Source of the DNA: a virus
Lineage: Duplodnaviria; Caudoviricetes
Virus record (IMG/VR): IMGVR_UViG_3300042922_000711
Location: 1-50,733 of that record
Reading direction: 5' to 3' (one strand)
Length of the DNA stretch: 50,733 nt
The position numbers were made by a program, and so were the translations under genes. This document shows positions 4,534 through 22,760 of the stretch, in pieces. The notes beneath the pieces were generated by a model. The model was not told where the DNA came from, searched no databases, and worked only from the letters and a program-made list of their open reading frames with translations. Each line of letters starts with the position of its first letter. Within the stretch, counting starts at the first letter, position 1.

Positions 4534-4816
4534 TGTTGAAAATTGAACAAAATACGCGGTTCAACTTGCGGTTCAAGTTAAAATATATCTTGAACCGCAT
4601 ATTTTATTGATATTTGAACATTTTCCATTTTGCGGTTCAAGTTCAACATTAAATTTCTATTATATATTATATTTTTGAAAAACATTAAATTTTAATGATT
4701 ATTTTCTTAATGCATTAAGAAATAGCATTTCATCTTGAACCATCTTGAACCGCGTTGCAATTACTACATTTCATCTTGAACTTTATCTTGAACCCAAGTT
4801 GAACTCATCTTGAACC
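4534..4816 (-). repeat. Iteron-like array L (GGTTCAAGAT/TTGAAC repeats around an AT-rich palindromic core); candidate origin or regulatory site
   Basis: About 13 GTTCAA/TTGAAC hexamers, core CATTAAA-T-TTTAATG; inverted homologue of 22425-22760. Confidence 0.85.
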
Positions 4817-5232
4817 AATCTCAATCTAATTAATTTCTCATGACAACCAAATATCATTGATAATTGACAAATAGTATAGTCTTTATACTCGGCCAGCTCT
4901 TCATCACTTATTAAAAGATTTACAGCAAACTTATTGGCTTCAACCTCTAATTTATCAACGGATAAAAAGGTATTTTCTTTTAAAAAAGGTGTATTTGATT
5001 TTGGATGTAATAAAGCATGGCCGAGCTCATGAGCAGCAGTAAACATTTGCTTATGTTCAGGTAAATTCTCATTAATATGAATAAATTTCTGTCTGAATGC
5101 AGTGTTGTAATAACCATTAATACTTCCAAGATTTTCATATAGTACCATGATCCCGAGGTTATTAGCAATTTTAAGTGGATTTCTTGTTTCATGCTTTTTG
5201 ATTAATTTAGATATAATTGTCAATTCTGTCAT
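4783..5232 (-). CDS. ImmA/IrrE-family metallopeptidase (anti-repressor)
   Basis: AHELGH zinc motif, EVEANKFA; directly downstream of the repressor. Confidence 0.9.
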   Translation of the reverse strand: MTELTIISKLIKKHETRNPLKIANNLGIMVLYENLGSINGYYNTAFRQKFIHINENLPEHKQMFTAAHELGHALLHPKSNTPFLKENTFLSVDKLEVEANKFAVNLLISDEELAEYKDYTICQLSMIFGCHEKLIRLRLVQDEFNLGSR

Positions 5233-5254
5233 TATTCCCCCTAAAATAGTGTAT

Positions 5255-5710
5255 CTACATCTTATTTTTGTTTGGGTTATATTTACTCTTAGCGACTACT
5301 TTCGCTATTTTTATACTGTTCTCAATGCTGTCCTTTAACAACTCCCTGGTTTCATCGTCTAAAGCTTCTCCATCAAACATTAAAGCGTCCTGAAAGTTGT
5401 CAAGCTGCTCCAGCATGAAATTCATAGTTTTTGCAATATCCCTCTTATCTCTTTTTGAAAATTCTTCATTTCTTTTCACATCATTAGCAAGTTCCTGTTC
5501 ATTTGGAAGATTTCTAAATTCAGTATTTCCCAATAGCCAATCGATGGAAACATCAAAATACTCAGCAATTTTTTGAAGTATATCACCGCTTGGTGATGAT
5601 TTTACCCATTTGGACGTTGCACCATTTCCCAATTTAAGTTCACTTTCCAACCTTCTTTGTGAAATTCCCTTTTCTTTACATAGTGCTTTTACTCGTTCTA
5701 GTAAAGTCAT
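5255..5710 (-). CDS. Phage repressor (ImmR/CI-like HTH)
   Basis: N-terminal HTH (...LQKIAEYFDVSIDWLLG); ATG at 5710 with GGAGG RBS. Confidence 0.9.
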   Translation of the reverse strand: MTLLERVKALCKEKGISQRRLESELKLGNGATSKWVKSSPSGDILQKIAEYFDVSIDWLLGNTEFRNLPNEQELANDVKRNEEFSKRDKRDIAKTMNFMLEQLDNFQDALMFDGEALDDETRELLKDSIENSIKIAKVVAKSKYNPNKNKM

Positions 5711-5735
5711 TGATTTTCCTCCTTTAAAAAATATA

Positions 5736-5912
5736 TAGAAAATTTTCAGCAAAAACTATTGACATGCAGAAAATATTCTGTATAATAAAGGATAAGTACA
5801 GAAAATAATCAGCAGACAAAATGAAATGTGCAGAAAATATTCAATTAAGTGTGGTGCTTATATAATAGAATATTTTCAGTGAATTGTCAATATATCTGCT
5901 GAAAATTTTCCT
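5736..5912. promoter_or_regulatory. Lysis/lysogeny switch: six operators and two face-to-face promoters
   Basis: CAGAAAATATTCTG-like sites at 5736, 5767, 5799, 5831, 5866, 5899; rightward TTGACA-16-TATAAT (5759-5786); leftward TTGACA-17-TATTAT (5890-5862). Confidence 0.8.
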
Positions 5913-5944
5913 TAAATTTAGAAAAAAGGAAGGAAGTGATCTAA

Positions 5945-6142
5945 TTGTATAAGAAAATCAAAGAATTGTGTCGAAACAAGGGAATTTCGATTTACCACTT
6001 AGAAAAGGTTTTGAAGCTTTCTACAGGAAGCATATGCAAGTGGGATAAGTCTGTACCAAGAGCAGATACGTTACAAAAAGTAGCGGAATATCTTGGAGTT
6101 CCGATCAGTTATCTTTTAGATGAAGATAAGCAGCACGATTAA
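5945..6142 (+). CDS. Cro-like HTH protein
   Basis: 65-aa HTH similar to the repressor N-terminus; first early gene. Confidence 0.85.
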   Translation: MYKKIKELCRNKGISIYHLEKVLKLSTGSICKWDKSVPRADTLQKVAEYLGVPISYLLDEDKQHD

Positions 6143-6171
6143 ATGGTGAAGTCATAAGTGAAAGGTGGCGA

Positions 6172-6396
6172 GTGAAGAACTTGGAAGACGTATTATACAC
6201 AGTAACAGAAGTTTCAAAATTAATTAAATCAAATCCAGCGTATGTGTATGAGCTTATCAAAGCTGGTTTGCTTCCAGTCATTAAACTTGGCAGCTATAAA
6301 GTAAGAAAAACAGCATTACTGAGTTTTCTGGAAAAGTACGAAGGTAAGGACCTTACTGATCCAAGTAATGTTACGGACTTAAAAGTAGGTGATTAA
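6172..6396 (+). CDS. Excisionase-like HTH protein
   Basis: LYTVTEVSKLI...VYELIKAGLLPVIKLG pattern. Confidence 0.8.
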   Translation: MKNLEDVLYTVTEVSKLIKSNPAYVYELIKAGLLPVIKLGSYKVRKTALLSFLEKYEGKDLTDPSNVTDLKVGD

Positions 6397-7756
6397 AATA
6401 ACAGAATTAAAGTTATTCCCGCACCAGGAGAAGGCGCTGCAAACAACCAAAGATAAAAATCGTGTAGCTTACTATTTGGATATGGGCCTCGGTAAGACGT
6501 TTGTTGGCTCTGAAAAAGTAAAAGAACTCGGAAATAAAATGAACTTGCTGGTGTGTCAAAAATCAAAAATTGATGACTGGATAAATCATTTCAAAACTTA
6601 TTATTCAGATTATGACATTTGTGATTTGACTTCAAAAAATGGAATGAAAAGCTTTATGTCGTGTGACAGCATGGTTCAAAGTGGACGGTTCAAAATAATT
6701 GGTGTTATCAATTATGAATTAGCCTGGAGAAGACCGCAGCTGTTGAAGTTAAGTGACTATACGTTAATGTTGGATGAATCAAGCTTAATTCAGAATGACA
6801 GCACTAAGCAAACAAAATTCATTCTTCAATTAAATCCTGAAAATGTGATTTTGCTTTCCGGAACACCAACTTCAGGAAAATATGAAAACCTGTTAACACA
6901 GATGAGCTTGCTGGGATGGAGTATCAGTAAAGAACTTTATAACAAGCAATATGTAAATTGGACAAAAATTGATGTAGGCGGTTTTCCTTTAAAAATAGTT
7001 GATAAAGAAGATCCTTACAAGAATGTGGATCGGCTCAAACAAAAGTTGCGCAATCATGGGGCAGTATTCATGAAGACAGAAGAAGCGTTTGAACTTCCTG
7101 AACAAATTGTGGTTCCAATGATGATAAAGACATCTAAAGAATATAAAAAATTTGATAGAAAGTCTTACATAGTCTTTGACACCTGCAATCTACATGAATT
7201 TAAAGATGACAGCGATTTTGAAGGTAATGACATAACGCCGAGAATTGAATTGATTGGAGATACAACCTTTACAAAAAGATTGTACTCAAGGCAATTATGC
7301 GGCCAATACAGCAAAGACAAGTTGGAAGCGTTTGAAGATTTGGCATCGAGCACCCAGGATAGATTGATTGTTTTCTATAACTTCAATGATGAACTGGCAT
7401 CTCTCAGTAAAATCGCAAAGAAATTAGAAAGAGAAGTATCATTTGTGAATGGTTCAGGTAGGTCAATGTATGGTTATGAATATATTGATAACTCAATAAC
7501 ATTTGTTCAGTACCAGGCAGGAGCCATGGGATTGAACCTTCAGAAAGCGAATAAGATTATTTACTTTACGCTTCCGGAAAGGTCGGAGCTATTTGAACAA
7601 AGCAAGAAAAGGATCCACAGGATAGGCCAAGAAAAAACATGTTTTTATTACTTGATGATATGTAAAGACAGCGTGGAAGAAGACATCTATGAAAATCTAA
7701 AGATGAGGAGGGATTACACGGATGAACTATTCAAGGAATACGAGGAGAAGGCTTAA
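6389..7756 (+). CDS. SNF2-like SF2 helicase
   Basis: DMGLGKT Walker A, LDES, LSGTP, GLNLQ, RIHRIGQ motifs. Confidence 0.9.
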   Translation: MIKITELKLFPHQEKALQTTKDKNRVAYYLDMGLGKTFVGSEKVKELGNKMNLLVCQKSKIDDWINHFKTYYSDYDICDLTSKNGMKSFMSCDSMVQSGRFKIIGVINYELAWRRPQLLKLSDYTLMLDESSLIQNDSTKQTKFILQLNPENVILLSGTPTSGKYENLLTQMSLLGWSISKELYNKQYVNWTKIDVGGFPLKIVDKEDPYKNVDRLKQKLRNHGAVFMKTEEAFELPEQIVVPMMIKTSKEYKKFDRKSYIVFDTCNLHEFKDDSDFEGNDITPRIELIGDTTFTKRLYSRQLCGQYSKDKLEAFEDLASSTQDRLIVFYNFNDELASLSKIAKKLEREVSFVNGSGRSMYGYEYIDNSITFVQYQAGAMGLNLQKANKIIYFTLPERSELFEQSKKRIHRIGQEKTCFYYLMICKDSVEEDIYENLKMRRDYTDELFKEYEEKA

Positions 7757-8300
7757 GTTCGAAAGAAACCTATTGATGTCAATGTTGATTGTTTGCCTGG
7801 TTGCTCTTGTAATAAGCGGCTTATCAGAAAAGAAAGCTTACGCTGAAGTTGAGAAATTAAAGACCGAAGTATTGCTGTTGGAAACGGACAACAATAATTT
7901 AGGAAGATGGAATGCGATTTTAGAAGTAGACAACGATATTATGGGCCGACGAATGAATCAATACGAAGAGATACTTCCATACATGTTTTTTTATGAGGGA
8001 GAGTTTGAGATCACATATTACACTTCTGGTCCAGAATCAACCGGTAAAACATCGAGTCACCCAGCGTATGGGGTAACTGCATCCGGAGCAAGTGTTAAAG
8101 AGGGACAAACTGTTGCTGCTGATTGGGATGTGCTTCCTCCAGGCACCAAAGTATTTATCGAAGGTGTTGGGATTAGAACTGTAGAAGACAAAGGCGGGCT
8201 GATAAAAGGAAATTGTATAGACGTCTATGTTGAGGATGTGGAAGTTGCTAGAGAACTAGGCAGACACAAAGCAACAGTCTATGTTTTAGAGGAAAATTAA
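7722..8300 (+). CDS. Membrane-anchored 3D-domain protein
   Basis: N-terminal TM; GVTASG, VAADWDVLPPGT, EDKGG, IDVY 3D-domain motifs. Confidence 0.8.
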   Translation: MNYSRNTRRRLKFERNLLMSMLIVCLVALVISGLSEKKAYAEVEKLKTEVLLLETDNNNLGRWNAILEVDNDIMGRRMNQYEEILPYMFFYEGEFEITYYTSGPESTGKTSSHPAYGVTASGASVKEGQTVAADWDVLPPGTKVFIEGVGIRTVEDKGGLIKGNCIDVYVEDVEVARELGRHKATVYVLEEN

Positions 8301-8321
8301 ACTTGTAAAGAGGAGGAAAAT

Positions 8322-8531
8322 ATGGACCAATATCAAAGTGAATATCACACGACAAACGGTAAGCAGAATTTTTACGTTGGTGAAAATATTGAGGTTGAGT
8401 TGAAGGATGGAAGCAGGGTTTCCGGGAAGGTGCAGTTCATAAGCGGAAGAGGTATTTACTTCCACACTGATGCAAAGAAACCGCTGTATTGCAGGAATGA
8501 TTCGATTAAGTTAATAGCAAGGTTAGGATGA
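8322..8531 (+). CDS. Hypothetical protein
   Basis: GAGGAGG RBS, in operon. Confidence 0.6.
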   Translation: MDQYQSEYHTTNGKQNFYVGENIEVELKDGSRVSGKVQFISGRGIYFHTDAKKPLYCRNDSIKLIARLG

Positions 8532-8697
8532 TTGGATGGACGTAATTTATAAAAATGAGGATAAAAAGTGTGAGTGCTGGAAATGCGAGCTAAAAAATAC
8601 TTGTCAGTACAAAGACAAGTATCAGAGACTTCCAAGAACTTCACCTGGTGCTTTAGGCTTATGTAAAAAACTATAAAAATTAAATAGGAGGCATTGA

Positions 8698-9156
8698 ATG
8701 TTTAAATGTACAATGGGCGGTTGCCCTCAAGGTAAAGACATTTGTTGCGTTAGCTGCAGCAAAAATAATTGTGAATCCAAATGCGAAGAAACCGATAACG
8801 TTTTAAGTTGTGGGTTTGCCAAAGAAATAATCGAAGAAGGTCAAACTGAAGTACAAATTTTTGAAAACCGGTATTTGCAAGTTTTCAAACAAGTAGCAGA
8901 CGTTACAAAAGCTAAAAAAGACCTGGAAGACCAAGAAAAGAAAGTTAAAGAGCAGCTCGAAAAAGCAATGAACGAGTACGGTATTGATTCTATTGACAAT
9001 CAATATTTAAAAATTACAAGAGTTAAAGCAAGTTCATCTGAATCAGTTGACCTAAAAAAGATGGAAGAAAAAGAACCACAGTTATACGCTGAGCTGCTTG
9101 CGGATTATAAAAAAGTTACAAATAAGAAAGCTTACTTGATGTTTAAGGTTAAATAA
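8698..9156 (+). CDS. Hypothetical phage protein (Cys-rich N-terminus, coiled C-terminus)
   Basis: AGGAGG RBS; lies in the replication/recombination block. Confidence 0.65.
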   Translation: MFKCTMGGCPQGKDICCVSCSKNNCESKCEETDNVLSCGFAKEIIEEGQTEVQIFENRYLQVFKQVADVTKAKKDLEDQEKKVKEQLEKAMNEYGIDSIDNQYLKITRVKASSSESVDLKKMEEKEPQLYAELLADYKKVTNKKAYLMFKVK

Positions 9157-9157
9157 T

Positions 9158-9457
9158 ATGAATAAAAAACTTATAAAAAAGATGATTAAGAAAAATCAAG
9201 CATTTGATGGCGTTATTTATGCAGATGGAAACAATGGTGGTGATATATTAGAAATTCACGACAACATGAACGGTACACTTCATCTTACTTCAGGTCATTG
9301 TTGCGTGATGACTATTAACAAAACTGTTCCAGTAGAATTTATAACTGCAATTTTATCAAAAGTGATGTTGGAAAATGATAATGATATTAATAAAGTTATT
9401 GATTCTTTCGATTGGCCAGAGCAGTTTAAACAGAAATTAAAGGATAAGGTTAAGTAA
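9158..9457 (+). CDS. Hypothetical protein
   Basis: Tightly packed between neighbours. Confidence 0.6.
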   Translation: MNKKLIKKMIKKNQAFDGVIYADGNNGGDILEIHDNMNGTLHLTSGHCCVMTINKTVPVEFITAILSKVMLENDNDINKVIDSFDWPEQFKQKLKDKVK

Positions 9458-9870
9458 TGGCATCGGAAAAATTATTCGAAAACCAGGTTAAAAAGTTTCT
9501 TCATGGCGTAGGGATTTATGCGGCAGGAACACCAATTCAAAAAATGACAGTTGAGCAGCGTGGATGGTACTTCAAGGAATGGGGTGGTGGTTACTCAAAG
9601 AGTGGTATTCCGGACTTAATAATTTGCGCTAATGGGTTTTTCATAGCATGTGAGTTAAAAGGTCCAACAGGTAAGCCATCAGAACTTCAAGGTTTAAACG
9701 TGATGAGAATAAACCAGTCAAACGGAATTGCAATGATCCTTTACCCTGAAGGCTTTGAGAACTTTAAAAATATAGTGAAAGGGGTGATGAAGTGCAATTC
9801 TCACATTCAAGAATTGATGTATTTAAAAACTGCAAATACAAGTACAAGCTGCAATATATTGACAAGCTAA
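9457..9870 (+). CDS. VRR-NUC domain nuclease
   Basis: SEKLFE...GIPDL...ELKGPTGKPSELQ motif. Confidence 0.85.
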   Translation: MASEKLFENQVKKFLHGVGIYAAGTPIQKMTVEQRGWYFKEWGGGYSKSGIPDLIICANGFFIACELKGPTGKPSELQGLNVMRINQSNGIAMILYPEGFENFKNIVKGVMKCNSHIQELMYLKTANTSTSCNILTS

Positions 9871-11693: not shown

Positions 11694-11822
11694 TTTTATA
11701 GAAGCATACGTTAATAAAAAAGCTCAGTACCTATAAAACACACAGTTAAATATATAGATTATACATCACGTTAATTCGAAGATACGTGAAAAAAATAAAA
11801 TGATAAGAGGAAGGTAAGAAGA

Positions 11823-12287: not shown

Positions 12288-12341
12288 TTGTTGAATAGGG
12301 GGATGAAACAATCCCCCTACAATCAAAACAGGAGGCTTTAA

Positions 12342-12872: not shown

Positions 12873-14582
12873 GTGATATTGATGTTATTCCTAGATTTTG
12901 AAGTATTTAAGCATGATTGGCTTGTTGTGATTGTTGACATGAACAAGAGACAAGAATATGTCATCATTAATGATCCTGAAGAATTAGAAAGAATTCACAA
13001 GCAGAATATAGACGACATTTGGGTTGGATTTAATATCAGACATTATGACCAATACATATTTAGAGGTATACTTTGTGGATTTGATCCGAAGAAAATTAAT
13101 GATTACATAATAGTACAAGGCAGGCCGGGTTGGAAATTTTCATCATTGTTCAAAAACATTAAACTAATAACTTATGACGTTATGCTGGGCAATGACAGAG
13201 GTTTAAAAGCGTTTGAGGGCTTTATGGGTAACAACATTAAAGAATCAAGTGTACCTTTCGATATAGACCGTAAATTGACTCCAGAAGAGATTGCAGAAAC
13301 AGTTAAGTATTGTCGGCATGACGTTGACCAACTCATTGAAGTGTTCATTGAAAGAAAAGAAGAGTTCGAAGCCACAAGAGAGTTGGTCAAGATTTTCAGA
13401 TTACCAATAGAATCATACGGTAAAACAAAGGCTCAGCTTGTAGCTGAAATATGTGGCGGCATGGGTAAGAGATTTGAAGATGATGAATTTGAATTCCCGG
13501 TTGTCCAATGTGTTCAAGAAAATTTGAAAAAATACAGATTTGTTCTTGAGTGGTATAGGAATCCTGAAAACCATGATTATACAAAAAGCCTTGACTGCAT
13601 AATTGCGGGTGTGCCCCACGTGTTTGGCTGGGGTGGAATACATGGAGCTGAAAAGAAAAACACGGTATTTGGTGACCTGCTGAACGTCGATGTTACAGCT
13701 TATTACCCGGCAATACAGTTGCGATATAAGTTTGGTTATAGAAATATGTCAAAGCCTGAGAACTTTGAAAAAATCCACAATGAGAACTTACGGCTGAAAG
13801 CTTCAGGCGATAAAAAGGCAAGATTACCTTTTAAGATTGCAGACAATAGTATATCCGGACAGCTCAAGGATCCAATGAGCAAACTGTTTGATCCACTGAT
13901 GAATAACGCGGTTTGCGTTAATGGACAATTAATGCTCCTGCTCCTGATTGAAATGATTGAACCACATGCGCAGCTCATTCAGTCAAATACAGATGGTATT
14001 CTGATGAAGCTGAATGACATTGATGATTACGGTTTGATTGATGATATCGTCTACGAATGGGAATGTTTGACCGGAATGAAAATGGAATTTGAACTGTTTA
14101 AGAAAGTGTTCCAGAAGGATGTTAATAATTACATTCTCATTGATGAAAAAGGAAAAGTTAAAACAAAAGGTGGATATGTTAAGAAGCTCAGCAAGATAGA
14201 TTATGATTTGCCAATTATCAACAAAGCGCTGGTTGAGTACATGGTTAATAACGTGCCGGTTGAGAAGACAATTAATGAATGTGATGACTTAAAAGAGTTT
14301 CAGTTGGTTTCAAAGATTACAAGTAAATATACTCACATACTGCACGGCGATAAAGTTTTAAAAGAGAAATGCATAAGAATATTTGCTTCAAAAGATAAAT
14401 CGGATGCAGGAGTTCAAAAGGTTCACGCCATAACCGGAAGACCGGCCAAGATATCAAACTCACCGTTAAGCTGCTTCATACACAATGATGAAGTCAATGG
14501 TGTAAAAGCGCCGAAGAAACTGGATAAGGAATGGTATATAAACATGGCAACAAAGAGATTACAAGATTTTGGGGTGATGTAA
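12873..14582 (+). CDS. Family-B-like DNA polymerase with N-terminal exonuclease-like domain
   Basis: LDFE ExoI-like; motif A DVTAYYP, motif B KIADNSISG, motif C SNTDG, and KTKG. Confidence 0.85.
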   Translation: MILMLFLDFEVFKHDWLVVIVDMNKRQEYVIINDPEELERIHKQNIDDIWVGFNIRHYDQYIFRGILCGFDPKKINDYIIVQGRPGWKFSSLFKNIKLITYDVMLGNDRGLKAFEGFMGNNIKESSVPFDIDRKLTPEEIAETVKYCRHDVDQLIEVFIERKEEFEATRELVKIFRLPIESYGKTKAQLVAEICGGMGKRFEDDEFEFPVVQCVQENLKKYRFVLEWYRNPENHDYTKSLDCIIAGVPHVFGWGGIHGAEKKNTVFGDLLNVDVTAYYPAIQLRYKFGYRNMSKPENFEKIHNENLRLKASGDKKARLPFKIADNSISGQLKDPMSKLFDPLMNNAVCVNGQLMLLLLIEMIEPHAQLIQSNTDGILMKLNDIDDYGLIDDIVYEWECLTGMKMEFELFKKVFQKDVNNYILIDEKGKVKTKGGYVKKLSKIDYDLPIINKALVEYMVNNVPVEKTINECDDLKEFQLVSKITSKYTHILHGDKVLKEKCIRIFASKDKSDAGVQKVHAITGRPAKISNSPLSCFIHNDEVNGVKAPKKLDKEWYINMATKRLQDFGVM

Positions 14583-14971: not shown

Positions 14972-16861
14972 TTGTTTTTCAAGGGTTATGTAGAAACAAA
15001 AGATAAAAAATGCATTGAAAAATTTAAGAATAGAACTGACTTCAAGAATTATGAGCAAGTTAAATCATTACCTGAGTTCGCTGGAATACTTTACGCAGAT
15101 ACGATATTAATTGATATCGACGATGCGGAGCAGAGTGACATTTTGTTTAAGATAGTCAAAGACCTGAAGCTTAAATGCAGAGTTTACAAGACAACCAGGG
15201 GGAAGCATTTCTTATTTAAGAATAAAGGCGTAGAGACAAATAAAACAAAGACACCATTGGCGATAGGTATAACATCGGACATCAAGATTGGAGCAAGAAA
15301 TTCATATTCGGTTCTGAAGTTTGACAACAAGGAAAGAAAAATAATATATGACACGGCCAAGAATGAAGAAGCCCAGGACCTTCCAAAATGGTTATTACCC
15401 ATAAGAACAAAAATGGACTTCTTGAACATGGAAGCAGGTGACGGAAGAAACCAGTCATTATTCAATTATATTTTGACACTACAAAGTAATGATTTCAGCG
15501 TAGAAGAATCCAGGGAATGTATTCGTATTATCAATCAACATGTGTTGAAAACACCATTAAGTGAGTCGGAGCTTGAGATAATACTGAGAGACGATGCGTT
15601 TGCAAAACCTGTATTCTTTAAAGGTACAGCTTTTCTGTTTGATAAGTTCGCAACGTATTTGAAGAATAATAATCACATACTGAAGATTAATAATCAGCTG
15701 CACCTTTACAGAGACGGAATATATGAGAATGGTCAAGAAGAAATTGAATGCGAAATGATTAAGCACATTCCAAACTTAAACAGAACTAAACGGTCGGAGG
15801 TAATGGCGTATTTGAACATTATGATTAGGCACAACACACCAGCTACGACAGCAAACTTAATAGCATTCAGAAACGGTGTTTACAACATAACTGATGATTC
15901 GTTTAGTGAATTTAAGCCGGAACACATAATCACGAATAAGATTGACTGGGATTATAACTCAAACACATATTCAGAGCTTGTTGATAAAACTTTGGACAAG
16001 ATAGCATGTAAGGATCCTGATGTTCGAATGCTGCTGGAAGAGGTAATCGGTTATTGTTTTTACAGGAGAAATGAGCTCGGCAAAGCGTTCATACTGATAG
16101 GTGATAAGTCAAATGGTAAATCGACATTCCTGGACATGGTTAAGACGCTGCTGGGAGAAAACAACATTGCAGCACTGGACCTTAAGGAGCTTGGAGACAG
16201 ATTTAAAACAGCTGAACTTTTCGGAAAGCTGGCCAACATCGGTGATGATATTGGTGATGAGTTTATAGCGAATGCAGCAGTATTTAAAAAGCTTGTTACT
16301 GGGGACAGATTGAACGTTGAAAGAAAAGGACAGAATCCATTTGATTTTAACAATTATTCTAAGATGTTATTTTCGGCCAACAACATTCCAAGAATTAAGG
16401 ACAAGACCGGCGCAGTACTCAGGAGATTAACCATCATACCTTTTGACGCTAAGTTCTCAGTTGATGATCCTGATTACAGACCATATATCAAATATGAATT
16501 AAGGGACCAGGAGTGCATGGAGTATTTAATCCTTCTTGGTATCAAAGGCTTAAAAAGGATACTTGCCAATCAGAAGTTTACACAGTCAACCAGGGTTGAA
16601 AGAGAGCTACAGGAGTACGAAGAAACAAACAATCCTGTTGTTGGATTCCTTAAGGATACGGATGAAGATGAGATTGATAATGAGCCAACAAAAAATGTTT
16701 ACAAGAAGTACCAGGAGTATTGTGTAGCAAATAATCTTCAACCTGTATCGCATATTGAATTTTCAAAACAGATTAACAGGATATTGAACCTTGAAATAGT
16801 GGACAAGAAGATAGATGGCAAAAAGTTCAGAATCTTCATAAAGAAAGAAGAGGAAGCATGA
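14972..16861 (+). CDS. AEP primase - SF3 (P4/D5-type) helicase
   Basis: DIDD and TTRGKH primase motifs, GDGRN PriCT-like segment, GDKSNGKST Walker A, SANNIP motif C. Confidence 0.9.
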   Translation: MFFKGYVETKDKKCIEKFKNRTDFKNYEQVKSLPEFAGILYADTILIDIDDAEQSDILFKIVKDLKLKCRVYKTTRGKHFLFKNKGVETNKTKTPLAIGITSDIKIGARNSYSVLKFDNKERKIIYDTAKNEEAQDLPKWLLPIRTKMDFLNMEAGDGRNQSLFNYILTLQSNDFSVEESRECIRIINQHVLKTPLSESELEIILRDDAFAKPVFFKGTAFLFDKFATYLKNNNHILKINNQLHLYRDGIYENGQEEIECEMIKHIPNLNRTKRSEVMAYLNIMIRHNTPATTANLIAFRNGVYNITDDSFSEFKPEHIITNKIDWDYNSNTYSELVDKTLDKIACKDPDVRMLLEEVIGYCFYRRNELGKAFILIGDKSNGKSTFLDMVKTLLGENNIAALDLKELGDRFKTAELFGKLANIGDDIGDEFIANAAVFKKLVTGDRLNVERKGQNPFDFNNYSKMLFSANNIPRIKDKTGAVLRRLTIIPFDAKFSVDDPDYRPYIKYELRDQECMEYLILLGIKGLKRILANQKFTQSTRVERELQEYEETNNPVVGFLKDTDEDEIDNEPTKNVYKKYQEYCVANNLQPVSHIEFSKQINRILNLEIVDKKIDGKKFRIFIKKEEEA

Positions 16862-17049: not shown

Positions 17050-17058
17050 GAGGTTCCG

Positions 17059-17256
17059 ATGAAAAAGTATGTTGTAGAAATGAGTTATATTTTAGGAGTA
17101 ACTTTAAATGTGAAAGCAGAAAACAAAGAGTATGCGATAGAAAAGGCAAAGGAAATTGTTAGAAATGATATTACTGTTATTGATACAGGTTGCGACATCG
17201 AAGATGTTGGGGATATAGAGTTTGAACAAGTTAACTTTGTAAAAGAGGTGAAATAA
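17059..17256 (+). CDS. Hypothetical protein
   Basis: AGGAGG RBS. Confidence 0.6.
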   Translation: MKKYVVEMSYILGVTLNVKAENKEYAIEKAKEIVRNDITVIDTGCDIEDVGDIEFEQVNFVKEVK

Positions 17257-17257
17257 G

Positions 17258-17839
17258 ATGGAAAAAGCTTTTATCATATCAAAAGACAGTAAGTATCACA
17301 AGGACTTAGATAATTACATTGAGTTATGTAATCAGCAGAAGGATTTTATAAATAAGTATTTCGGTGAAAAAGGAATTGAAGCCAACACATATAGAATTAG
17401 TGGGAACGGCAGTGTAAACTCACCATTTGAAGACTGGGAAAAAGATGAAATAAGTCTTAGCATTGGAGCTACAAATAATGATTCAACCAAGTTCGGAAAA
17501 GCACTTTGTAAGAAAAATGAGCATGGATTATGCAGTTTTAACAAAAAGTCTGAAATAAGTAAGGATTTTGCAAAGAGATGTATTGAAGAAAAAGTTGTCA
17601 TAAATTTATGGGAACCGAGGATATCAAATTATTTTGAAAGTATCAGCTTTAGAGGGTGCCGTTATCACAGAATCATTCATCAGGACATAATGTACATGAA
17701 AATCGATAGCAATCACCTGGATGATAAAGAAGTTCCGGACGGATTTACAGAAATTAAACTAAGTGAATTTTACACCAAGTTAGAAGAATATAACGAATCT
17801 ACGAAGGGGGATAACGATGAAAGTAAAAATAATAAATAA
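17258..17839 (+). CDS. Hypothetical protein
   Basis: GAGGTG RBS, in operon. Confidence 0.65.
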   Translation: MEKAFIISKDSKYHKDLDNYIELCNQQKDFINKYFGEKGIEANTYRISGNGSVNSPFEDWEKDEISLSIGATNNDSTKFGKALCKKNEHGLCSFNKKSEISKDFAKRCIEEKVVINLWEPRISNYFESISFRGCRYHRIIHQDIMYMKIDSNHLDDKEVPDGFTEIKLSEFYTKLEEYNESTKGDNDESKNNK

Positions 17840-18248
17840 TAGCGGTTTTCCGCTTCCAAAATATGAGACACCTGGTGCAGCTGGATTTGACATAAAAGCT
17901 TCGATAAAAAATGAGGATGTAATCAAGCCCAGGGAAACTGTAATTGTGCCAACTGGTTTATATGTGGCCATACCGCAAGGTTATGAGCTTCAGATAAGAG
18001 GTAGAAGTGGATTAGCAATGAAATATGCTATAGGTATTACGCATGGCGTGGGCACTGTGGATTCGGATTATAGAGGTGAAATAAAAATCTTTTTAACAAA
18101 TCATGGAGCTTTACCTTTTGAAATAAAACCAGGCGACAGAATAGCCCAAGGGATAATTGCTCCAGTAATTCAGGCCGAATGGGAAGAAGTTGAAACACTT
18201 GATGAAACAAAGAGAGGAGCTGGTGGATTTGGAAGCACAGGAAAATAA
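17817..18248 (+). CDS. dut: Trimeric dUTPase
   Basis: AAGFDI, RSGLA, GTVDSDYRGE, RIAQ, RGAGGFGSTG motifs. Confidence 0.95.
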   Translation: MKVKIINNSGFPLPKYETPGAAGFDIKASIKNEDVIKPRETVIVPTGLYVAIPQGYELQIRGRSGLAMKYAIGITHGVGTVDSDYRGEIKIFLTNHGALPFEIKPGDRIAQGIIAPVIQAEWEEVETLDETKRGAGGFGSTGK

Positions 18249-18534
18249 AGCTATTGAGATAATTAACGATGTCACATGGCAAGATGGTGGTAGGCATTAT
18301 GGCGAAGTTGAAGAAGCTAGACGGTTAGCCATATCGGCACTTGAAAAGCAGATACCTAAAAACCCTATTAAGAAAGAAGAGCAGTATAAAAAAATAACAG
18401 TTGAGATTTATTATTGTCCAATTTGTAATGAAGAGGTTAGCAGGCGGTCAAAGTCTTCGTATTTATGCAAAACACCATATTGCGATGAATGTGGTCAAAA
18501 AATAGATTGGTCGGAGGCTCAAAATGCAGAATGA
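18190..18534 (+). CDS. Zinc-ribbon phage protein
   Basis: ALEKQIPK...CPIC...CDECGQKIDW. Confidence 0.7.
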   Translation: MKHLMKQREELVDLEAQENKAIEIINDVTWQDGGRHYGEVEEARRLAISALEKQIPKNPIKKEEQYKKITVEIYYCPICNEEVSRRSKSSYLCKTPYCDECGQKIDWSEAQNAE

Positions 18535-18829
18535 TCAGTTTACTGAAGTAGTTCAAGAGCAAATAACAAGATGTTTAACAACGTTAGATTGTAAAAACAA
18601 TGAGTACGGAACAGAAGACAGATTACATAATTTTAAAGTTGCAGCAGTTCTCCAGGATGTTATACCAACTCAAGCCCTGGCAGGCATGATGGCGAAGCAC
18701 ACGGTTAGTGTTTATGATATGTGCCGGGACGGAAGCAGAGATTTAGCATTATGGAATGAGAAAATAACCGACAATATTAATTACTTATTGCTGCTCAGGG
18801 CGTTGGTTGAAGAGGAAGGAGTGGATTAA
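18524..18829 (+). CDS. Putative nucleotide-modification-associated / MazG-like helical protein
   Basis: KNNEYG...HNFK...DNINYLLLL pattern. Confidence 0.5.
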   Translation: MQNDQFTEVVQEQITRCLTTLDCKNNEYGTEDRLHNFKVAAVLQDVIPTQALAGMMAKHTVSVYDMCRDGSRDLALWNEKITDNINYLLLLRALVEEEGVD

Positions 18830-18831
18830 GC

Positions 18832-19062
18832 GTGAAAAATACATTAGGGGATTTGAATAATCATTTGTTTGCTCAACTTGAGCGTCTCGGGGATGAGGAT
18901 CTAAAAGGTGAAGCTCTTAAAGAAGAAATGGATAGAGCTAAATCAATTGGCTATGTGGCCAAGCAGATTATAGATAACGCATCTTTAGTTTTAGAAGCGC
19001 AAAAGATGATGGATGATAAAATGAACGCCGATTTAAAATTGCCTAAGATGTTGGAGGGATAG
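18832..19062 (+). CDS. Conserved phage protein preceding HNH
   Basis: MKNTLGDLNNHLFAQLERL pattern. Confidence 0.7.
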   Translation: MKNTLGDLNNHLFAQLERLGDEDLKGEALKEEMDRAKSIGYVAKQIIDNASLVLEAQKMMDDKMNADLKLPKMLEG

Positions 19063-19065
19063 AAA

Positions 19066-19665
19066 TTGCATTTCTACACAACAAATGAAATCGAGTATCT
19101 TAGAGAAATTACGCCAAGAAGAACGAACAAAGAAATCACTGAAATGTTCAATAAGAAATTCAATTTGAATTTATCCAGAAAAGCTATCTCCGGAACTAGG
19201 AAAAGATTTGGATTCTTAACAGGTTCAGATGGGCGTTTCGAAAAAGGTCACGTACCCGCCAACAAAGGATCTAAAGGGCTCTGGAAAGGTGGTGAGAAAA
19301 CTCAATTTGCTAAAGGTCATAAACCTCACAACTGGGTACCGATTGGATCCGAGAGAATAACCAAAGACAATTACATCCAAGTCAAGATTCAAGAGGGTAA
19401 ATTTCAAAAGAACTGGAAAGGTAAGCATATCTTAATCTGGGAAGAGCATAACGGTCCGGTACCGCCGGGCCACGGTGTAATATTTGGGGATGGGAACAAT
19501 CGTAATTTTAATATTGATAATTTAATTCTAGTTTCCAGGCACCAGCTATTAGAATTAAATAGAAATAATCTCATTCAAAAGGATGCTGACCTGACGAGAA
19601 CTGCTTTATTAATAACAGACTTAAACATAAAAATGAATGCGCGAAAAAAGAAGGCGGTGAAGTGA
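19066..19665 (+). CDS. HNH endonuclease
   Basis: KHILIWEEHNGPVP...IFGDGN..N..IDNL; FxKG repeats. Confidence 0.8.
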   Translation: MHFYTTNEIEYLREITPRRTNKEITEMFNKKFNLNLSRKAISGTRKRFGFLTGSDGRFEKGHVPANKGSKGLWKGGEKTQFAKGHKPHNWVPIGSERITKDNYIQVKIQEGKFQKNWKGKHILIWEEHNGPVPPGHGVIFGDGNNRNFNIDNLILVSRHQLLELNRNNLIQKDADLTRTALLITDLNIKMNARKKKAVK

Positions 19666-19821
19666 TGAAATATTGCAGATTTACCAATGATGAATGTATC
19701 TTTAAAGATACTGATATTGATTGCAAAAGGTGTGCCTGGCGTGTTGATACCTGTATAATGTGCGGTGAAGTTATTCCTGAAGGTAGACAAGTTTGTATCA
19801 ATTGTGAAGAGAAGGTGAAAA

Positions 19822-20034
19822 ATGGCAAATAAGAATCCAAGACTTAATGACAGCGGATTACCTGATCCAACGGCATATGAAGCATTAAAGCCGATAATCA
19901 AGAACGATAATGACGTGGATAAAACAGCGCACAGCTTGATTAATACTTTGAAGTTTATTGTTGACTGGGCCGGGTTCGAGTTCATCGGAAGAATAAGAGT
20001 TAAACATAAGAAAACAGGAAGGGAATTCAAATAA
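19822..20034 (+). CDS. Hypothetical phage protein
   Basis: GLPDPTAYEA pattern; AGGTG RBS. Confidence 0.65.
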   Translation: MANKNPRLNDSGLPDPTAYEALKPIIKNDNDVDKTAHSLINTLKFIVDWAGFEFIGRIRVKHKKTGREFK

Positions 20035-20216
20035 TGAAAAAACTGATAGAAGAATTCCTCATAATATGCGGTTTGTGTGTAGTAGTTTTAATATTCTGGC
20101 AAAGGCTAGAATTGTCAACGATGGGTGAAATAACATACAGAAAAGTGGATGACATAATAGCTTCAATTTTAACTTTCTCGTTGTATATAAATCTCAAAAA
20201 TTGGAAAAGGGGATAA
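20034..20216 (+). CDS. Small membrane protein
   Basis: Two hydrophobic stretches; TAATG overlap. Confidence 0.55.
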   Translation: MKKLIEEFLIICGLCVVVLIFWQRLELSTMGEITYRKVDDIIASILTFSLYINLKNWKRG

Positions 20217-20223
20217 GAGGATT

Positions 20224-20754
20224 ATGGAAGAAAGATTTGAAAAGTTTGAAGGTTTGATGGGAAATAAAGTAACAGATAAATTCAAGGAATGGCTCATTGA
20301 AAATGGTTTTTTCACAGCTCCAGCTTCGGCAGGACATCATGGAGCATATGAGGGCGGATTGTTTGACCACTCTTACGCGGTAACTGAAACCTTGGTCAAG
20401 CTAACAAAGGATTTGAACTTACACTGGAATGTTCCAAGCTCACCTTATATTGTGGGAATGTTTCATGACTTATGTAAAATAGACGCATATAAACGTAAGT
20501 TATTCCCACTCAATAGTAGCGAGTTTGAGTATAACAAAGATGTTTTACTTCCTGGCCATGGTGAGAAATCAATAATATATCTTCAACAGCAAATGACCAT
20601 CACCGAAGAAGAGATAATGTGTATCAGGTGGCACATGGGGGCATTTGACGATAAAGAAAACTGGAAGTATTACTCAGCAGCTGTCAACAAATATCCAAAT
20701 GTTTTATATACTCACACTGCTGATATGATTGCTTCACAGATCCTGGGAGTTTAA
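20224..20754 (+). CDS. HD-domain phosphohydrolase
   Basis: TAPAS..HH...GGL..HS, FHDLCK, RWHMG, HTAD. Confidence 0.85.
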   Translation: MEERFEKFEGLMGNKVTDKFKEWLIENGFFTAPASAGHHGAYEGGLFDHSYAVTETLVKLTKDLNLHWNVPSSPYIVGMFHDLCKIDAYKRKLFPLNSSEFEYNKDVLLPGHGEKSIIYLQQQMTITEEEIMCIRWHMGAFDDKENWKYYSAAVNKYPNVLYTHTADMIASQILGV

Positions 20755-20759
20755 AGCAA

Positions 20760-21593
20760 GTGAAGATATTAAGTTGCGGGGCAGGAATGCAGTCAACAGC
20801 GTTGGCGTTGATGTCGTGCGAGAATAAATCAAAAGGAAATATTCATCCACTTGTTCCAATCTATGATGCAATTATATTTTGCGATCTCGGGAAAGAACCA
20901 CCTTGGGTTTATGACCAGGTCAAATTCATAATGAATGCATGTGACGCGGTTGGAATTCCATTCTATATTTTGGACACCCATCTTTATGATGATTATGTCG
21001 ATAATTTTGGAAAGAACAGAGTGGTTTCAATACCATTTTGGACAGTTGATGAAGATGGAAAGAAAGGAAAGATGATGCGAAACTGCACATTGGATTATAA
21101 AATTAATGCTATTCAGAAGTTTGTGAAACATGAACTGTTGGGTTACAAGAAGTATGAAAGAATTAAGCCACACGATATTAAAGCACATGAAATGCACATT
21201 GGTTTCAGCGTGGAAGAAAAAAGCAGGTGTAGCGAAAACCCACATAAAATGTTCGTTAATAAATTTCCATTGATTGAGCTTCAACATGAACGAAAACATA
21301 ACTTTGCATACATCAAGGATGTTTGGGGATTAGAAACAAAAGCAAGTGCTTGTAACATTTGTCCGTTTCATAGGAATTATTTCTTCAAACATCTAAAAGA
21401 GAATCATCCGAAAGAGTATCAAGAAGTTATTAAACTGGATCATATCCTTGAAGAAAGACAGCCTGATACAAAAATTAGAAGTAAACTTTATATTTCGAGA
21501 TCAAGAAAGAGAATCAAAGATTTGACAGATGAAGAATGTAATGATGTAGAGACATTTCTTTACAAAGAGCAAATAATTTGGAATGGATTTTGA
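20760..21593 (+). CDS. PAPS-reductase-like / adenine-nucleotide alpha-hydrolase protein
   Basis: LSCGAGMQST PP-loop-like start, FCDLGKE, CTLDYKI, SACNICPF. Confidence 0.7.
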   Translation: MKILSCGAGMQSTALALMSCENKSKGNIHPLVPIYDAIIFCDLGKEPPWVYDQVKFIMNACDAVGIPFYILDTHLYDDYVDNFGKNRVVSIPFWTVDEDGKKGKMMRNCTLDYKINAIQKFVKHELLGYKKYERIKPHDIKAHEMHIGFSVEEKSRCSENPHKMFVNKFPLIELQHERKHNFAYIKDVWGLETKASACNICPFHRNYFFKHLKENHPKEYQEVIKLDHILEERQPDTKIRSKLYISRSRKRIKDLTDEECNDVETFLYKEQIIWNGF

Positions 21594-21718
21594 TAAGGGG
21601 AGTGTAATTATGAAAAAGCTTAAATATTATTACCAATGCGCGAAGTGGTTGTGGAAGAACAGAAATTGGACGGGCTCCAGACAGAAGTACAGAGCAATGG
21701 AAAGGGAGTTGAAGAAGT

Positions 21719-21931
21719 ATGAATAACAGTGTAGTGTGCGTGCCAAGTAAATCAGTTAAATATTTAGAAAATATAATGCTTGTAAATGAGATGCTGCGTG
21801 AAAGCGTTGAGAAACAAAACACATATAGAGCGTTCAACAAGCTTAAAAAACGCACCGTTAAAAAGTCAGCTAACCCTAAAAAGAAGGCCAAGAGGAAAAT
21901 TAAGCAAGCAAGTCAGAAAAGGAATAGGTGA
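21719..21931 (+). CDS. Small basic hypothetical protein
   Basis: GGGAG RBS; Lys-rich C-terminus. Confidence 0.45.
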   Translation: MNNSVVCVPSKSVKYLENIMLVNEMLRESVEKQNTYRAFNKLKKRTVKKSANPKKKAKRKIKQASQKRNR

Positions 21932-21935
21932 CACC

Positions 21936-22217
21936 ATGACGCGTGAAGACATAATAAGCATTATAAGGCAGGCAATGGACCTTCTTGACCTAAGAGTCAA
22001 AGGAAGAGTGATAATAACACCTTGCGCAGTTGGTGATTACATCAGGACAAAATACGACGATGAAGTTTTAAGAGTTGACGGATTCACAACATATGGTGAT
22101 GACTTAAAAGTTTGGTGCGAAGGTGAAAGCGAAAATGAAGATTATACAGAATTTGAGCTTAGTGAAATAACAGAATTTATTCCAAGGGAGAAATATAATG
22201 AAACCAATAAGAACTAA
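21936..22217 (+). CDS. Hypothetical protein
   Basis: AGGTG RBS before ATG (MTREDIIS...) within ORF 21786-22217. Confidence 0.55.
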   Translation: MTREDIISIIRQAMDLLDLRVKGRVIITPCAVGDYIRTKYDDEVLRVDGFTTYGDDLKVWCEGESENEDYTEFELSEITEFIPREKYNETNKN

Positions 22218-22464
22218 TACAGCAAACAGGACTTACACCGGGGAAGGCTGCATACCATTACCAGCTACAGCGATACAATACAGTGATGGAAAGGTAGGGG
22301 TAGAGACGTGCTTTGAACTCACAGATGAGGAATTGGAGCAGGTGCAGAAGTCAAAGCACATATATGTAACCTTTGCCGGACAGTCAATTATACCGTTTAT
22401 GGTGCATACCGAAACTCACACAGCGGTTCAAGATGAGTTCAAGATGGTTCAAGATGAAAAATAG
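22198..22464 (+). CDS. Hypothetical protein whose C-terminus is encoded by array R
   Basis: GGGAG RBS; ends AVQDEFKMVQDEK. Confidence 0.6.
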   Translation: MKPIRTNTANRTYTGEGCIPLPATAIQYSDGKVGVETCFELTDEELEQVQKSKHIYVTFAGQSIIPFMVHTETHTAVQDEFKMVQDEK

Positions 22465-22760
22465 TCATCTTGAACCGGTTCAAACGAAGTAGCAGTAATG
22501 GTTGTGTGTCTCGGGTTCAAGATGGTTCAAGATACTTTTGAGTTCTTTATATATAGGGTGTAAAATCATTAAAATTTAATGATTTTCAAAAATATAATAT
22601 ATAGTATAAAAACTAAGTTGAACTTGAACTGCAAAATTTAACAATCAGCAAGCATATTGAAATTTAAACAAAATTAGCGGTTCAAGATTAAGTTTAAAAA
22701 TAGGGTTGATCTTGAACCCATCTTGAACCAAGTTGAACCTGTTGAAATTTCAACAAATAT
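22425..22760 (+). repeat. Iteron-like array R; candidate replication origin
   Basis: About 13 GTTCAA/TTGAAC hexamers in mostly opposite orientation on either side of the 25-bp palindrome AAAATCATTAAA-A-TTTAATGATTTT (22562-22586). Confidence 0.85.

Follow-up and report, generated by a model that had tools for sequence, protein, structure and literature searches.

Twin origin-like iteron arrays border the early region of a temperate phage and co-vary with the wing of its primase-helicase in relatives

The window, meaning the whole 50,733-nucleotide stretch of Caudoviricetes DNA analysed here, contains two repeat arrays of similar build, A and B, separated by 17.9 kb (Table 1). Two divergent operons each end in one of them. 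Leftward, the order is repressor-ImmA, array A and int, and the 3′ end of the ImmA ORF overlaps the last iterons of the array. Rightward, the Cro and replication genes lead into array B and the late regulator, which is followed by TerS, TerL and portal. Homologues of the last ORF of the rightward operon also adjoin arrays in relatives. Array A is 283 nt long and array B 336 nt, and the similarity between them reaches the ribosome-binding region of the downstream gene.

Table 1. Positions of the two arrays, their parts and the neighbouring or associated genes in the window
Feature	Position	Strand	Remarks and basis
Array A, lysogeny-side copy of the putative origin	4534..4816	-	on the minus strand: left iteron block, AT-rich centre, right iteron block; points to int
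AT-rich centre of A, 88 nt	4647..4734	.	imperfect palindrome at about 4679-4701
Promoter-like TTAAAA-18-TATAAT in centre of A	4695..4666	-	motif match
Array B, copy of the putative origin at the early/late border	22425..22760	+	points to late sigma-like gene
Iteron blocks of B	left 22425-22530, right 22618-22738	+	hexamer positions
AT-rich centre of B, 87 nt	22531..22617	.	perfect 12-1-12 palindrome, 22562-22586
Promoter-like TTAAAA-18-TATAAT in centre of B	22569..22598	+	motif match
Primase-helicase, 629 aa, proposed initiator for both arrays	14972..16861	+	Pfam, PHROG 864, PDB 7OLA
Beta-hairpin wing codons, residues 607-624, LEIVDKKIDGKKFRIFIK, proposed iteron reader	16790..16843	+	AlphaFold, co-variation
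Tyrosine integrase with arm-binding domain, downstream of A	3283..4518	-	domain and PHROG searches
ImmA-like metalloprotease	4783-5232	-	leftward operon 4783..5752, ends in array A
HTH repressor	5255-5752	-	same leftward operon as the ImmA-like gene
Last ORF of the rightward early operon	22198..22464	+	3′ end overlaps first iterons of B
Sigma-70 region-4 type late regulator, downstream of B	22783..23349	+	start taken as ATG 22783

The original prediction described the two arrays as inverted copies of each other, and a repeat search together with local alignment bears this out. Three ungapped inverted repeats pair 4627-4721 with 22543-22637 (95 nt, 80% identity), 4578-4621 with 22654-22697 (44 nt, 77%) and 4745-4781 with 22447-22483 (37 nt, 76%). 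Local alignment of array A with the reverse complement of array B gives 84% identity over 288 aligned columns, and the longest exact run common to both is 23 nt. The identical start claimed for the two copies is present as the shared 18-mer GGTTCAAGATGAGTTCAA. The core quoted for both is found in the arrays with one mismatch, and the AT-rich palindrome, likewise ascribed to both, is perfect in B and imperfect in A.

The predicted number of GTTCAA/TTGAAC hexamers, about 13 per array, is also correct, with 13 in 4543-4815 and 13 in 22426-22738. As anticipated, in both arrays they run mostly in one direction on one side of the AT-rich spacer and in the opposite direction on the other. Across the window this hexamer occurs 78 times, against 43.2 expected. 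The iteron GGTTCAAG occurs 19 times, 15 of them inside the arrays (A 7, B 8), whereas 100 shuffled sequences contained it 1.43 times on average and never more than 6 times. Both arrays have the features of the SaPI-type layout, namely a length of about 300 bp, opposed iterons and an AT-rich centre.

The proposed initiator is encoded between the arrays. The SF3 primase-helicase assigned to this phage in the original prediction is recovered through Pfam D5_N, DUF5906 and Pox_D5, PHROG 864 and PDB 7OLA. The match to 7OLA has an E value of 5.3e-45 and covers residues 219-605; 7OLA and 7OM0 are structures of SaPI5 PriRep5, as the cited descriptions identify them (PMC9371898; bioRxiv 10.64898/2026.10.17.759575). 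By its PDB 7OLA and Pfam matches, the protein belongs with the self-loading SF3 helicases of the Rep/PriRep family. Its primase domain gives only a weak PriCT_1 match, and there are weak Cdc6_C/RFX winged-helix Pfam matches. Residues 500-629, modelled with AlphaFold at a mean pLDDT of 83.1, fold as a winged helix in which residues 607-624 form the wing, with strands at fragment positions 108-115 and 118-125. When this C-terminal domain model was searched with Foldseek, no PDB hit passed the threshold of E 0.001; an RFX DNA-binding domain came closest, at E 0.03. The window also encodes a DUF669 SSB-like protein and a fusion of a PD-(D/E)XK nuclease with AAA_24. The label ‘PolB’ was not confirmed for the ORF at 12873-14582, which matches PHROG 1252 ‘DNA polymerase’ but neither a Pfam family nor any PDB chain.

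Variation among relatives points to the helicase wing as the candidate reader of the iterons. An array detector run after 86 full-length helicase genes found an array in 60; at 8 helicase loci with 5-10 kb of sequence after the gene, it found none. All 35 helicases with a D-[KR]-[KR] wing accompany GTTCAAG iterons, and the 25 with other wings accompany about 12 iterons other than GTTCAAG; these are related sequences whose counts overstate independent events, and the tree suggests switches on the order of 6-15. The alternative iterons include TGTAACA, CGTAACA, GTCAAGATGT, AATTCAAG, AGTAGGC and GCGGAACA, and further AGCTACAG, GGACAGGC, GGTAACAC, GTACAAGA and GACAAGTT. On a helicase tree built without the last 60 residues, non-GTTCAAG types are nested within the GTTCAAG group, with 9 changes, at least 6 of them forced by well-supported branches. 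The helicase cores of locus L136 and loci L135/L138 are only about 0.01 changes per site apart, yet their wings and iterons differ. At two loci (L043, L060), small proteins resembling only helicase residues 572-628 adjoin arrays and have the same wing type. We propose that the C-terminal wing specifies iteron binding, a prediction drawn from this co-variation; in PriRep5, according to the cited accounts, the wing reads iteron bases (PMC9371898; bioRxiv 10.64898/2026.10.17.759575).

Other candidate iteron binders were considered. Beside GTTCAAG arrays, the integrase, the repressor (ImmR/ImmA or S24), the late regulator (sigma-like or DUF1492) and the terminase all vary in type, and none of the four tracks the iteron.

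Whether related prophages keep both copies with co-varying iterons, a check attached to the original prediction, is answered positively by many Bacillota prophages. Complete genomes of Sporomusa and Ihubacter carry twin copies with matching iterons, GTTCAAGTT in Sporomusa, where the copies are 99% identical over 337 nt, and GTCAAGATGT in Ihubacter. Both copies likewise share TGTTACA in the relative G001 and GCGGAACA in G014, and 14 of 22 records with GTTCAAG pairs have two clusters 13.7-17.4 kb apart. The late-side position of B is occupied by arrays in 39 of 40 helicase-anchored relatives, and the position of A, between integrase and repressor operon, also holds such arrays in relatives. Measured from iteron to iteron, the gap across the centre is 91-109 nt long in 32 of the 35 late-side arrays; on the lysogeny side it is 92-111 nt long in 20 of 21. 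The lysogeny-side copy of G001 is the shorter of its two: it has 5 iterons in 130 nt, and the late-side copy has 7 in 255 nt. In the near-complete relatives G037, G033 and G036 a single GTTCAAG array was seen, so the second copy is not indispensable.

Placement relative to the helicase gene also varies. In nine relatives (L055, L163, L166, L167, L168, L169, L177, L179, L104), the array starts at the helicase stop codon or no more than 120 nt from it. The window departs from this layout of an origin directly after rep, with B 5.6 kb downstream of the helicase stop and A 10 kb upstream. The copies are inverted in most genomes and direct in G014, where the repressor-int module runs in the same direction as the early genes. 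In the genomes compared, each copy keeps one polarity relative to the incoming operon and the following gene. The pair is inverted because each copy ends one of two divergent operons with its polarity retained.

We consider it probable, at roughly 0.7, that each array is a replication origin of the SaPI/PICI type or, failing that, a complete initiator-binding site of origin type. This corresponds to one of the two options in the original prediction, an origin system for the SF3 primase-helicase, and it is favoured by the array anatomy, the homology to PriRep5, the wing co-variation and the arrays that directly follow the helicase gene in relatives. The primase-helicase would recognise GGTTCAAG(A/G/T)T iterons through the beta-hairpin wing of its C-terminal winged helix, and its hexamers would assemble on the two opposed iteron blocks. 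The AT-rich centre of about 90 nt would then be melted, and the helicase would load itself and prime. The phage would carry two complete origin copies, one ending each divergent operon. Judging from sequence comparison, the arrays may be bound, melted and fired in this way, and both copies may fire.

A division of labour between the copies is possible, though we lean against it. One would fire, and the other would serve as an initiator-bound roadblock to the fork, switching theta replication to concatemer formation, or as a partner for looping or handcuffing. The phage SPP1 offers a precedent in the cited account, with two alike origins about 13 kb apart that are both bound by gp38, replication starting at oriL and gp38 at oriR proposed to stall the fork and trigger a mode switch (PMC6316719). 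The shorter lysogeny-side copies of some relatives, such as G001, and the single arrays of some near-complete ones fit such a division, and the recombination set of the window (the nuclease and the SSB-like protein) could restart stalled forks. However, the full origin layout and centre length kept in 20 of 21 lysogeny-side arrays would be unneeded in a mere binding site, and each copy in the window has 13 hexamers. It is improbable, in our estimate, that the copies work as a pair in which a fork from one meets initiator at the other, or the near-identical inverted pair recombines while the genome replicates, so that theta replication turns into rolling-circle or double rolling-circle synthesis and yields concatemers for headful packaging. 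If they did, a large family of Bacillota phages would have an origin-encoded switch of replication mode, and flipped genomes like the contig G005 would be its footprint. Rather improbable, too, is that the arrays are promoter/operator cassettes which control int and the late regulator jointly and start no replication, with the C-terminal domain of the helicase or some other regulator bound to them. Both lie directly upstream of, and point to, a gene, with similarity up to its ribosome-binding region; the TTAAAA-18-TATAAT motif falls in the most conserved part of both centres and faces that gene, and relatives with other iterons retain a TATAAT-like box on the downstream side. Yet promoter-like matches in region A, taken as a whole, are not above chance (10 found, 9.6 expected), and the downstream gene varies among several integrase kinds, a membrane protein and a lysin-side gene. 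In SaPI-like layouts, arrays of this type come straight after the helicase gene, and they match characterised SaPI origins in size, in the opposition of their iterons and in a centre about 90-105 nt long. A promoter within an origin is, moreover, compatible with origin function.

The other option in the original prediction, that crossover between the arrays inverts the 18-kb immunity-plus-replication cassette, is not supported by these comparisons, and we regard it as very unlikely. Such a crossover, site-specific or homologous, would act as a switch or as a concatemer route like that of 2-micron or HSV. It would agree with an inverted pair that has a conserved, palindrome-bearing centre. The contig G005 holds a hybrid array, its left part 97-98% like lysogeny-side arrays and its right part 99% like late-side arrays reversed, and it joins ImmA straight to late genes, as inversion would. 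This is the only recombinant junction seen; however, 11 kb of replication genes are missing from G005, in whose source metagenome the copies are near-identical, and an arbitrary assembler path explains it equally well. No single recombinase family accompanies the arrays. The recombinases beside the lysogeny-side array are tyrosine integrases of different families or large serine recombinases, or there is no integrase at all. The XerD-like enzyme suggested as catalyst has no counterpart in the compared relatives with twin arrays, where it gives only 22-26% matches to their own integrases. The direct copies of G014 also argue against inversion, as does the standard gene order at all 39 judgeable loci among the 40 helicase-anchored ones and in both complete bacterial genomes. 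In the single run containing the window, contigs span both arrays in the standard order and show no strand-changing joint, though rare forms escape contigs. Exact matches between the window copies do not exceed 23 nt. The Sporomusa copies would suit homologous recombination well, and recombination of this kind between near-identical copies is possible in some lineages.

Several known systems share parts of this arrangement. The satellite phage P4 encodes alpha, a primase-SF3 helicase whose C-terminal domain binds iterons, and has iteron sites at ori and crr that lie kilobases apart; crr is a pair of direct repeats needed in cis and is not known to form another complete origin with an AT-rich centre. 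By this general description of P4, the likeness lies in the primase-SF3 helicase and the two iteron sites, and the difference in the second full origin proposed here. HSV carries copies of oriS, which lies between promoters, in the inverted repeats that flank U_S, and the yeast 2-micron plasmid has FLP/FRT inverted repeats. In both, the sites lie in long repeats of identical sequence, and inversion of the segment has been documented, whereas the window copies are 84% alike, isomers were not observed and the copies of G014 are direct.

SaPI origins, as the cited sources describe them, are about 300 bp long, and their iterons, at least two per side and opposite in direction, flank an AT-rich middle region that measures 102 bp in SaPI5 (PMC9371898; bioRxiv 10.64898/2026.10.17.759575). 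The arrays resemble those of SaPI/PICI elements, so far as described there, in their length of about 300 bp, in opposed blocks of 5-7 nt iterons that enclose an AT-rich centre, in a primase-fused SF3 helicase as initiator, with iteron reading by the wing of its C-terminal winged helix (predicted here), and in an array directly after the helicase gene in several relatives. They differ from those satellites in belonging to a full temperate myovirus-type phage, in their iteron (GGTTCAAG versus TGCAACC in SaPI5) and in forming two complete copies, neither adjoining the helicase gene, at the cassette borders upstream of int and the late regulator. SPP1 likewise has two alike sites, oriL and oriR, kilobases apart (about 13 kb on a circular genome) for one origin-binding protein, such binding being predicted for our phage; its origins combine repeats with an AT-rich unwinding element, and one lies in an intergenic stretch among late genes (PMC6316719). 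Unlike the phage studied here, SPP1 is virulent, its gp38 is separate from a DnaB-type helicase and loader, and oriL lies inside gene 38; relative orientation and a link to int or a late regulator are not part of the system as far as that account describes it (PMC6316719).

The twin arrangement was not found described in a search of full-text literature, a scope that leaves subscription journals mostly outside. SaPI-type origins with self-loading helicases are a minimal model of origin recognition studied only in one-origin satellites with the origin beside rep. The same system now appears, apparently duplicated at both borders of the early region, in temperate phages that form a wide family across Clostridia, Negativicutes and Bacilli. 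The second copy may be a second origin, a theta-to-sigma roadblock or a coupling of replication to int and late-gene expression. About a dozen natural wing-iteron pairs could help in planning swaps of specificity and in designing orthogonal replicons. In the AT-rich centre, a TATAAT-like box is kept, always on the side of the downstream gene, an observation that is also compatible with a promoter cassette.

The window is a 50,733-bp IMG/VR virus record, the genome of a temperate phage with a contractile tail, in which two related arrays stand at opposite ends of the early region, one on the lysogeny side (array A) and one at the border with the late genes (array B). The original prediction of twin inverted iteron arrays bracketing this region is borne out. 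Comparison of A with B returns inverted repeats of 95, 44 and 37 nt at 76–80% identity, a gapped local alignment spans 288 columns at 84% identity, and each array carries 13 GTTCAA/TTGAAC hexamers. The octamer GGTTCAAG occurs 19 times in the window, against an expectation of 1.4, with 15 of these copies inside the arrays.

Features of the window that flank or lie between the two arrays
Feature	Position	Orientation	Remarks
Tyrosine integrase (int)	3283-4518	minus	
Array A	4534-4816	minus	occupies the gap between int and ImmA
ImmA-like protease	4783-5232	minus	
HTH repressor	5255-5752	minus	
Early operon	from 5945	rightward	Cro-like protein, SNF2 helicase, PD-(D/E)XK-AAA_24 protein, DUF669 SSB-like protein, DNA polymerase, D5-type primase-helicase
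D5-type primase-helicase	14972-16861	rightward	in the early operon
Array B	22425-22760	plus	fills the interval from the last early ORF to the late regulator
Late regulator, sigma-70 region-4 type	22783-23349		followed by TerS, TerL, portal, sheath and baseplate genes

Both arrays share one layout. Read toward the downstream gene, mostly forward iterons are followed by an AT-rich spacer of 87–88 nt and then by mostly reverse iterons. The most conserved stretch of the arrays lies within the spacer and carries a palindrome, which in B is a perfect 12-1-12 repeat, and the similarity between A and B extends to just short of the int and late-regulator start codons. The array centres contain a conserved promoter-like element that faces int in A and the late regulator in B. 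This element hints at a coupling of origin activity to the expression of int and the late regulator; a sigma-70 promoter scan finds matching sites in both centres, but its count for region A is at chance level. Among the early genes, a PolB had been proposed. The 569-aa product of 12873-14582 is indeed assigned to the DNA polymerases by its match to PHROG family 1252 (E 7e-159), but its placement in polymerase family B rather than A is not confirmed, as sequence searches matched it to neither a Pfam family nor a PDB chain.

Arrays of this kind recur as a conserved element throughout a large phage family. A 19-mer taken from the arrays was found in 62 stretches of IMG/VR contigs, and 61 of these hold a cluster of at least five hexamers in the same layout as the window arrays. 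Neighbouring genes place the arrays in two main positions: about 30 separate the early operon's end from a late regulator, TerS and TerL, and about 25 are found at the repressor operon's outer end, usually with an integrase adjoining. A few directly adjoin the primase-helicase gene, or a small gene resembling only its last 57 residues. BLAST comparison with INPHARED phage records gave no match to either array.

Most relatives keep both copies, and the iterons of the two co-vary, the comparison put forward as a test with the original prediction. The 19-mer search of IMG/VR placed two arrays about 15–17 kb apart on six contigs. A 98% complete phage record (G001) has two inverted arrays 14.6 kb apart with TGTTACA in both, and in the complete Ihubacter chromosome 17.5 kb separates two arrays that both carry GTCAAGATGT. 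The complete chromosome of Sporomusa acidovorans DSM 3132 has a pair 14.2 kb apart, with 99% identity between the two arrays over 337 nt. A scan of 24 further records for GTTCAAG pairs gave matches in 22; 14 of these have two clusters 13.7–17.4 kb apart, three more probably do, and five have a single cluster, three of them in records that are 95–100% complete. The second copy is not universal. The full layout is kept in lysogeny-side arrays, where the iteron-to-iteron distance across the centre is 92–111 nt in 20 of 21 cases, and the corresponding distance in late-side arrays is 91–109 nt in 32 of 35. Twin centres are more alike within than between genomes, as a modest trend only: within-genome identity is at least 0.76 in 8 of 11 genomes, and between genomes the median is 0.68 and the 95th percentile 0.83. 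Together with the identity of the two Sporomusa centres, this likeness indicates that sequence exchange between copies happens in some lineages.

The protein most closely tied to the arrays is the primase-helicase, a sequence homologue of SaPI5 PriRep5 (PDB 7OLA, E 5.3e-45). The AlphaFold model of its residues 500–629 (mean pLDDT 83.1) ends in a helix-helix-hairpin arrangement, the hairpin of residues 607–624 forming the wing that is the proposed reader of the iterons. A Foldseek search with this C-terminal domain model returned nothing at E 0.001 or better, the top matches being the winged helices of RFX (E 0.03) and Orc1/Cdc6. Among 86 full-length relatives of the primase-helicase, drawn from viral contigs and bacterial genomes, 60 have an iteron array 3′ of the helicase gene. 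Less than 3 kb of DNA lies past the gene in 18 of the other 26, and in the remaining eight, with 5–10 kb past the gene, no array was found by the detector used. The array starts at the helicase stop codon or within 120 nt past it in nine loci, in a SaPI-like arrangement.

Wing and iteron vary together across these proteins. A wing beginning D-[KR]-[KR] is accompanied by GTTCAAG iterons in 35 of 35 proteins, and the remaining 25 of the 60 have different wings and different iterons. VVVKRIGNKT occurs with TGTAACA, VNKTINKKK with GTCAAGATGT, SRQQRVNGKK with AGTAGGC, KDARVNGRKT with GCGGAACA and YPTRIGGQQV with AGCTACAG. The window protein separates the wing from the helix that precedes it. This helix, SKQINRILN, is common to the TGTAACA group, yet the wing is of the DKK type and the iterons are GTTCAAG, which points to the wing as the determinant of iteron type. 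On a tree of the primase-helicase core, from which the last 60 residues were omitted, other iteron types are nested inside the GTTCAAG group. The iteron label changes nine times on this tree, at least six changes being forced by well-supported branches, and cores only about 0.01 changes per site apart differ in wing and in iteron. Integrase, repressor, late-regulator and terminase families all vary beside a single iteron type, making them poor candidates for the binding protein.

The orientation of the copies follows from their place in the transcription units. Each array, in the window and in relatives, occupies the 3′ terminus of an operon, where its first iterons overlap the final ORF, and also lies 5′ of another gene, and it has a single polarity toward both neighbours. 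The TATAAT-like box in the centre without exception faces the gene downstream. Since the repressor and early operons diverge and array polarity is fixed relative to the operon, the two arrays come to be inverted. The relative G014 puts this rule to the test: its repressor-integrase module is co-directional with both early and late genes, and its two arrays, which lie 3.7 kb from each other and both have GCGGAACA iterons, are direct repeats. Inversion of the pair is therefore not a conserved feature in itself. The G014 locus (L194 10218-19564) is compact and comprises the primase-helicase, an origin, a sigma-like regulator, TerS, TerL, an HTH repressor, a second origin, directly oriented, an integrase and a Barstar-like gene. 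It has no capsid genes between TerL and the repressor, and it may be a satellite-like element.

The original prediction also considered that the arrays are recombination sites whose crossover inverts the 18-kb early region, with a XerD-like enzyme as catalyst. One contig, G005, is of the kind that such a crossover would produce, having a hybrid array at which ImmA is joined to late genes. Relative to G008 from the same metagenome, about 11 kb of replication genes is missing from it. The two copies in the G005 sample are near-identical over at least 100 nt, so an assembler's arbitrary path through the repeat explains the junction equally well. The wider comparison argues against inversion, as do the direct copies of G014. 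No one kind of recombinase accompanies the arrays. Of 40 helicase-anchored loci with visible ORFs, 39 have a late regulator, TerS and TerL following the array on the same strand, the one exception having a SaPI-like layout, and the ORFs scanned at helicase-anchored loci (49/115) include no recombinase. Both complete bacterial genomes have the standard gene order. The sole sequencing run holding the window, probably the one from which it came, has contigs that pass through A and B in the standard order and include no strand-changing joint; as contigs are blind to rare isomers, this result speaks neither for nor against inversion. The longest exact run common to A and B in the window is 23 nt, and homologous recombination between them should be rare.

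The proposed catalyst fares no better. The XerD-like gene (1961-2962) lies outside the bracketed region, has a 75% identical copy at 46404-47432, and is not conserved, with no close counterpart in the relatives compared. Other site-specific roles were likewise rejected. Integrase arm sites (attP) are disfavoured because the arrays adjoin unrelated integrase types or none and are intact in integrated prophages. A pac or terminase site is at odds with the different terminase families found beside identical iterons, and the same variability, among repressors and late regulators, speaks against repressor operators and late-regulator sites.

An origin system bound by the primase-helicase accords with what is described for related elements. 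SaPI origins are described as about 300 bp long and located just after rep, with opposing sets of 5–7 nt iterons that flank an AT-rich centre (102 bp in SaPI5), and as bound by Rep through its C-terminal winged helix. The reported PriRep5–DNA structure has the β-hairpin wing inserted in the major groove, where it is taken to read the iteron. By its predicted mechanism and by initiator homology, the window element belongs with these SaPI/PICI Rep-PriRep origins. In contrast to them, the window arrays are duplicated and displaced to both borders of a full phage's early cassette, a twin-origin arrangement for which no description was found in the literature searched. Phage SPP1 is described as having two origins of similar build, 13 kb apart and both bound by a single protein. 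One of them initiates replication, and binding of the protein at the other has been proposed to stall the fork and thereby set off the synthesis of concatemers. By analogy, a model in which one array fires and the other stalls the fork is plausible for the twin arrays.

Several further features were observed in the window. An exact 99-nt direct repeat at 1-99 and 42704-42802 forms the 3′ end of a small XkdX-like ORF, and the contig begins exactly at this repeat. Different lysis cassettes follow the two copies, with an M23 peptidase (890-1513) after one and an amidase (44282-45565) after the other, and similar hairpin terminators lie past the cassettes (1510-1547 and 45606-45643). Each segment (159-2962 and 42875-47432) holds one member of the XerD-like pair. 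This arrangement resembles an assembly joint of two related phages, or related prophages in tandem, rather than att sites. A 36-nt inverted repeat (83%, with 38 nt between its arms; 1837-1946) and two 21-nt direct repeats (1765-1828) immediately precede the XerD-like gene at 1961. These repeats are a candidate site for the XerD-like recombinase, distinct from the iteron arrays, and the sequence upstream of the second XerD-like gene is weakly similar to this region.

Small proteins related to the initiator occur elsewhere. Two viral contigs (L043:242-646 and L060:2075-2461) encode proteins of 128–134 aa whose similarity to the primase-helicase is confined to its winged-helix end and which keep the DKK-type wing; each directly adjoins a GTTCAAGAT array and has a Mor-like activator and a small terminase as neighbours. 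These proteins may come from satellites sharing the origin specificity of a helper phage. The Sporomusa prophage also encodes a 239-aa early protein with the winged-helix-end domain (G013 4214012-4214731). Tandem arrays of another kind, with 13–22 copies of a 15-nt unit (AACAGCG plus 8 nt), are absent from the window and lie about 8.5 kb upstream of the helicase gene in relatives (L069:1304-1497, L079:2371-2579, L087:1-492, L093:1483-1815 and others). Their 15-nt period suggests a coding pentapeptide repeat.
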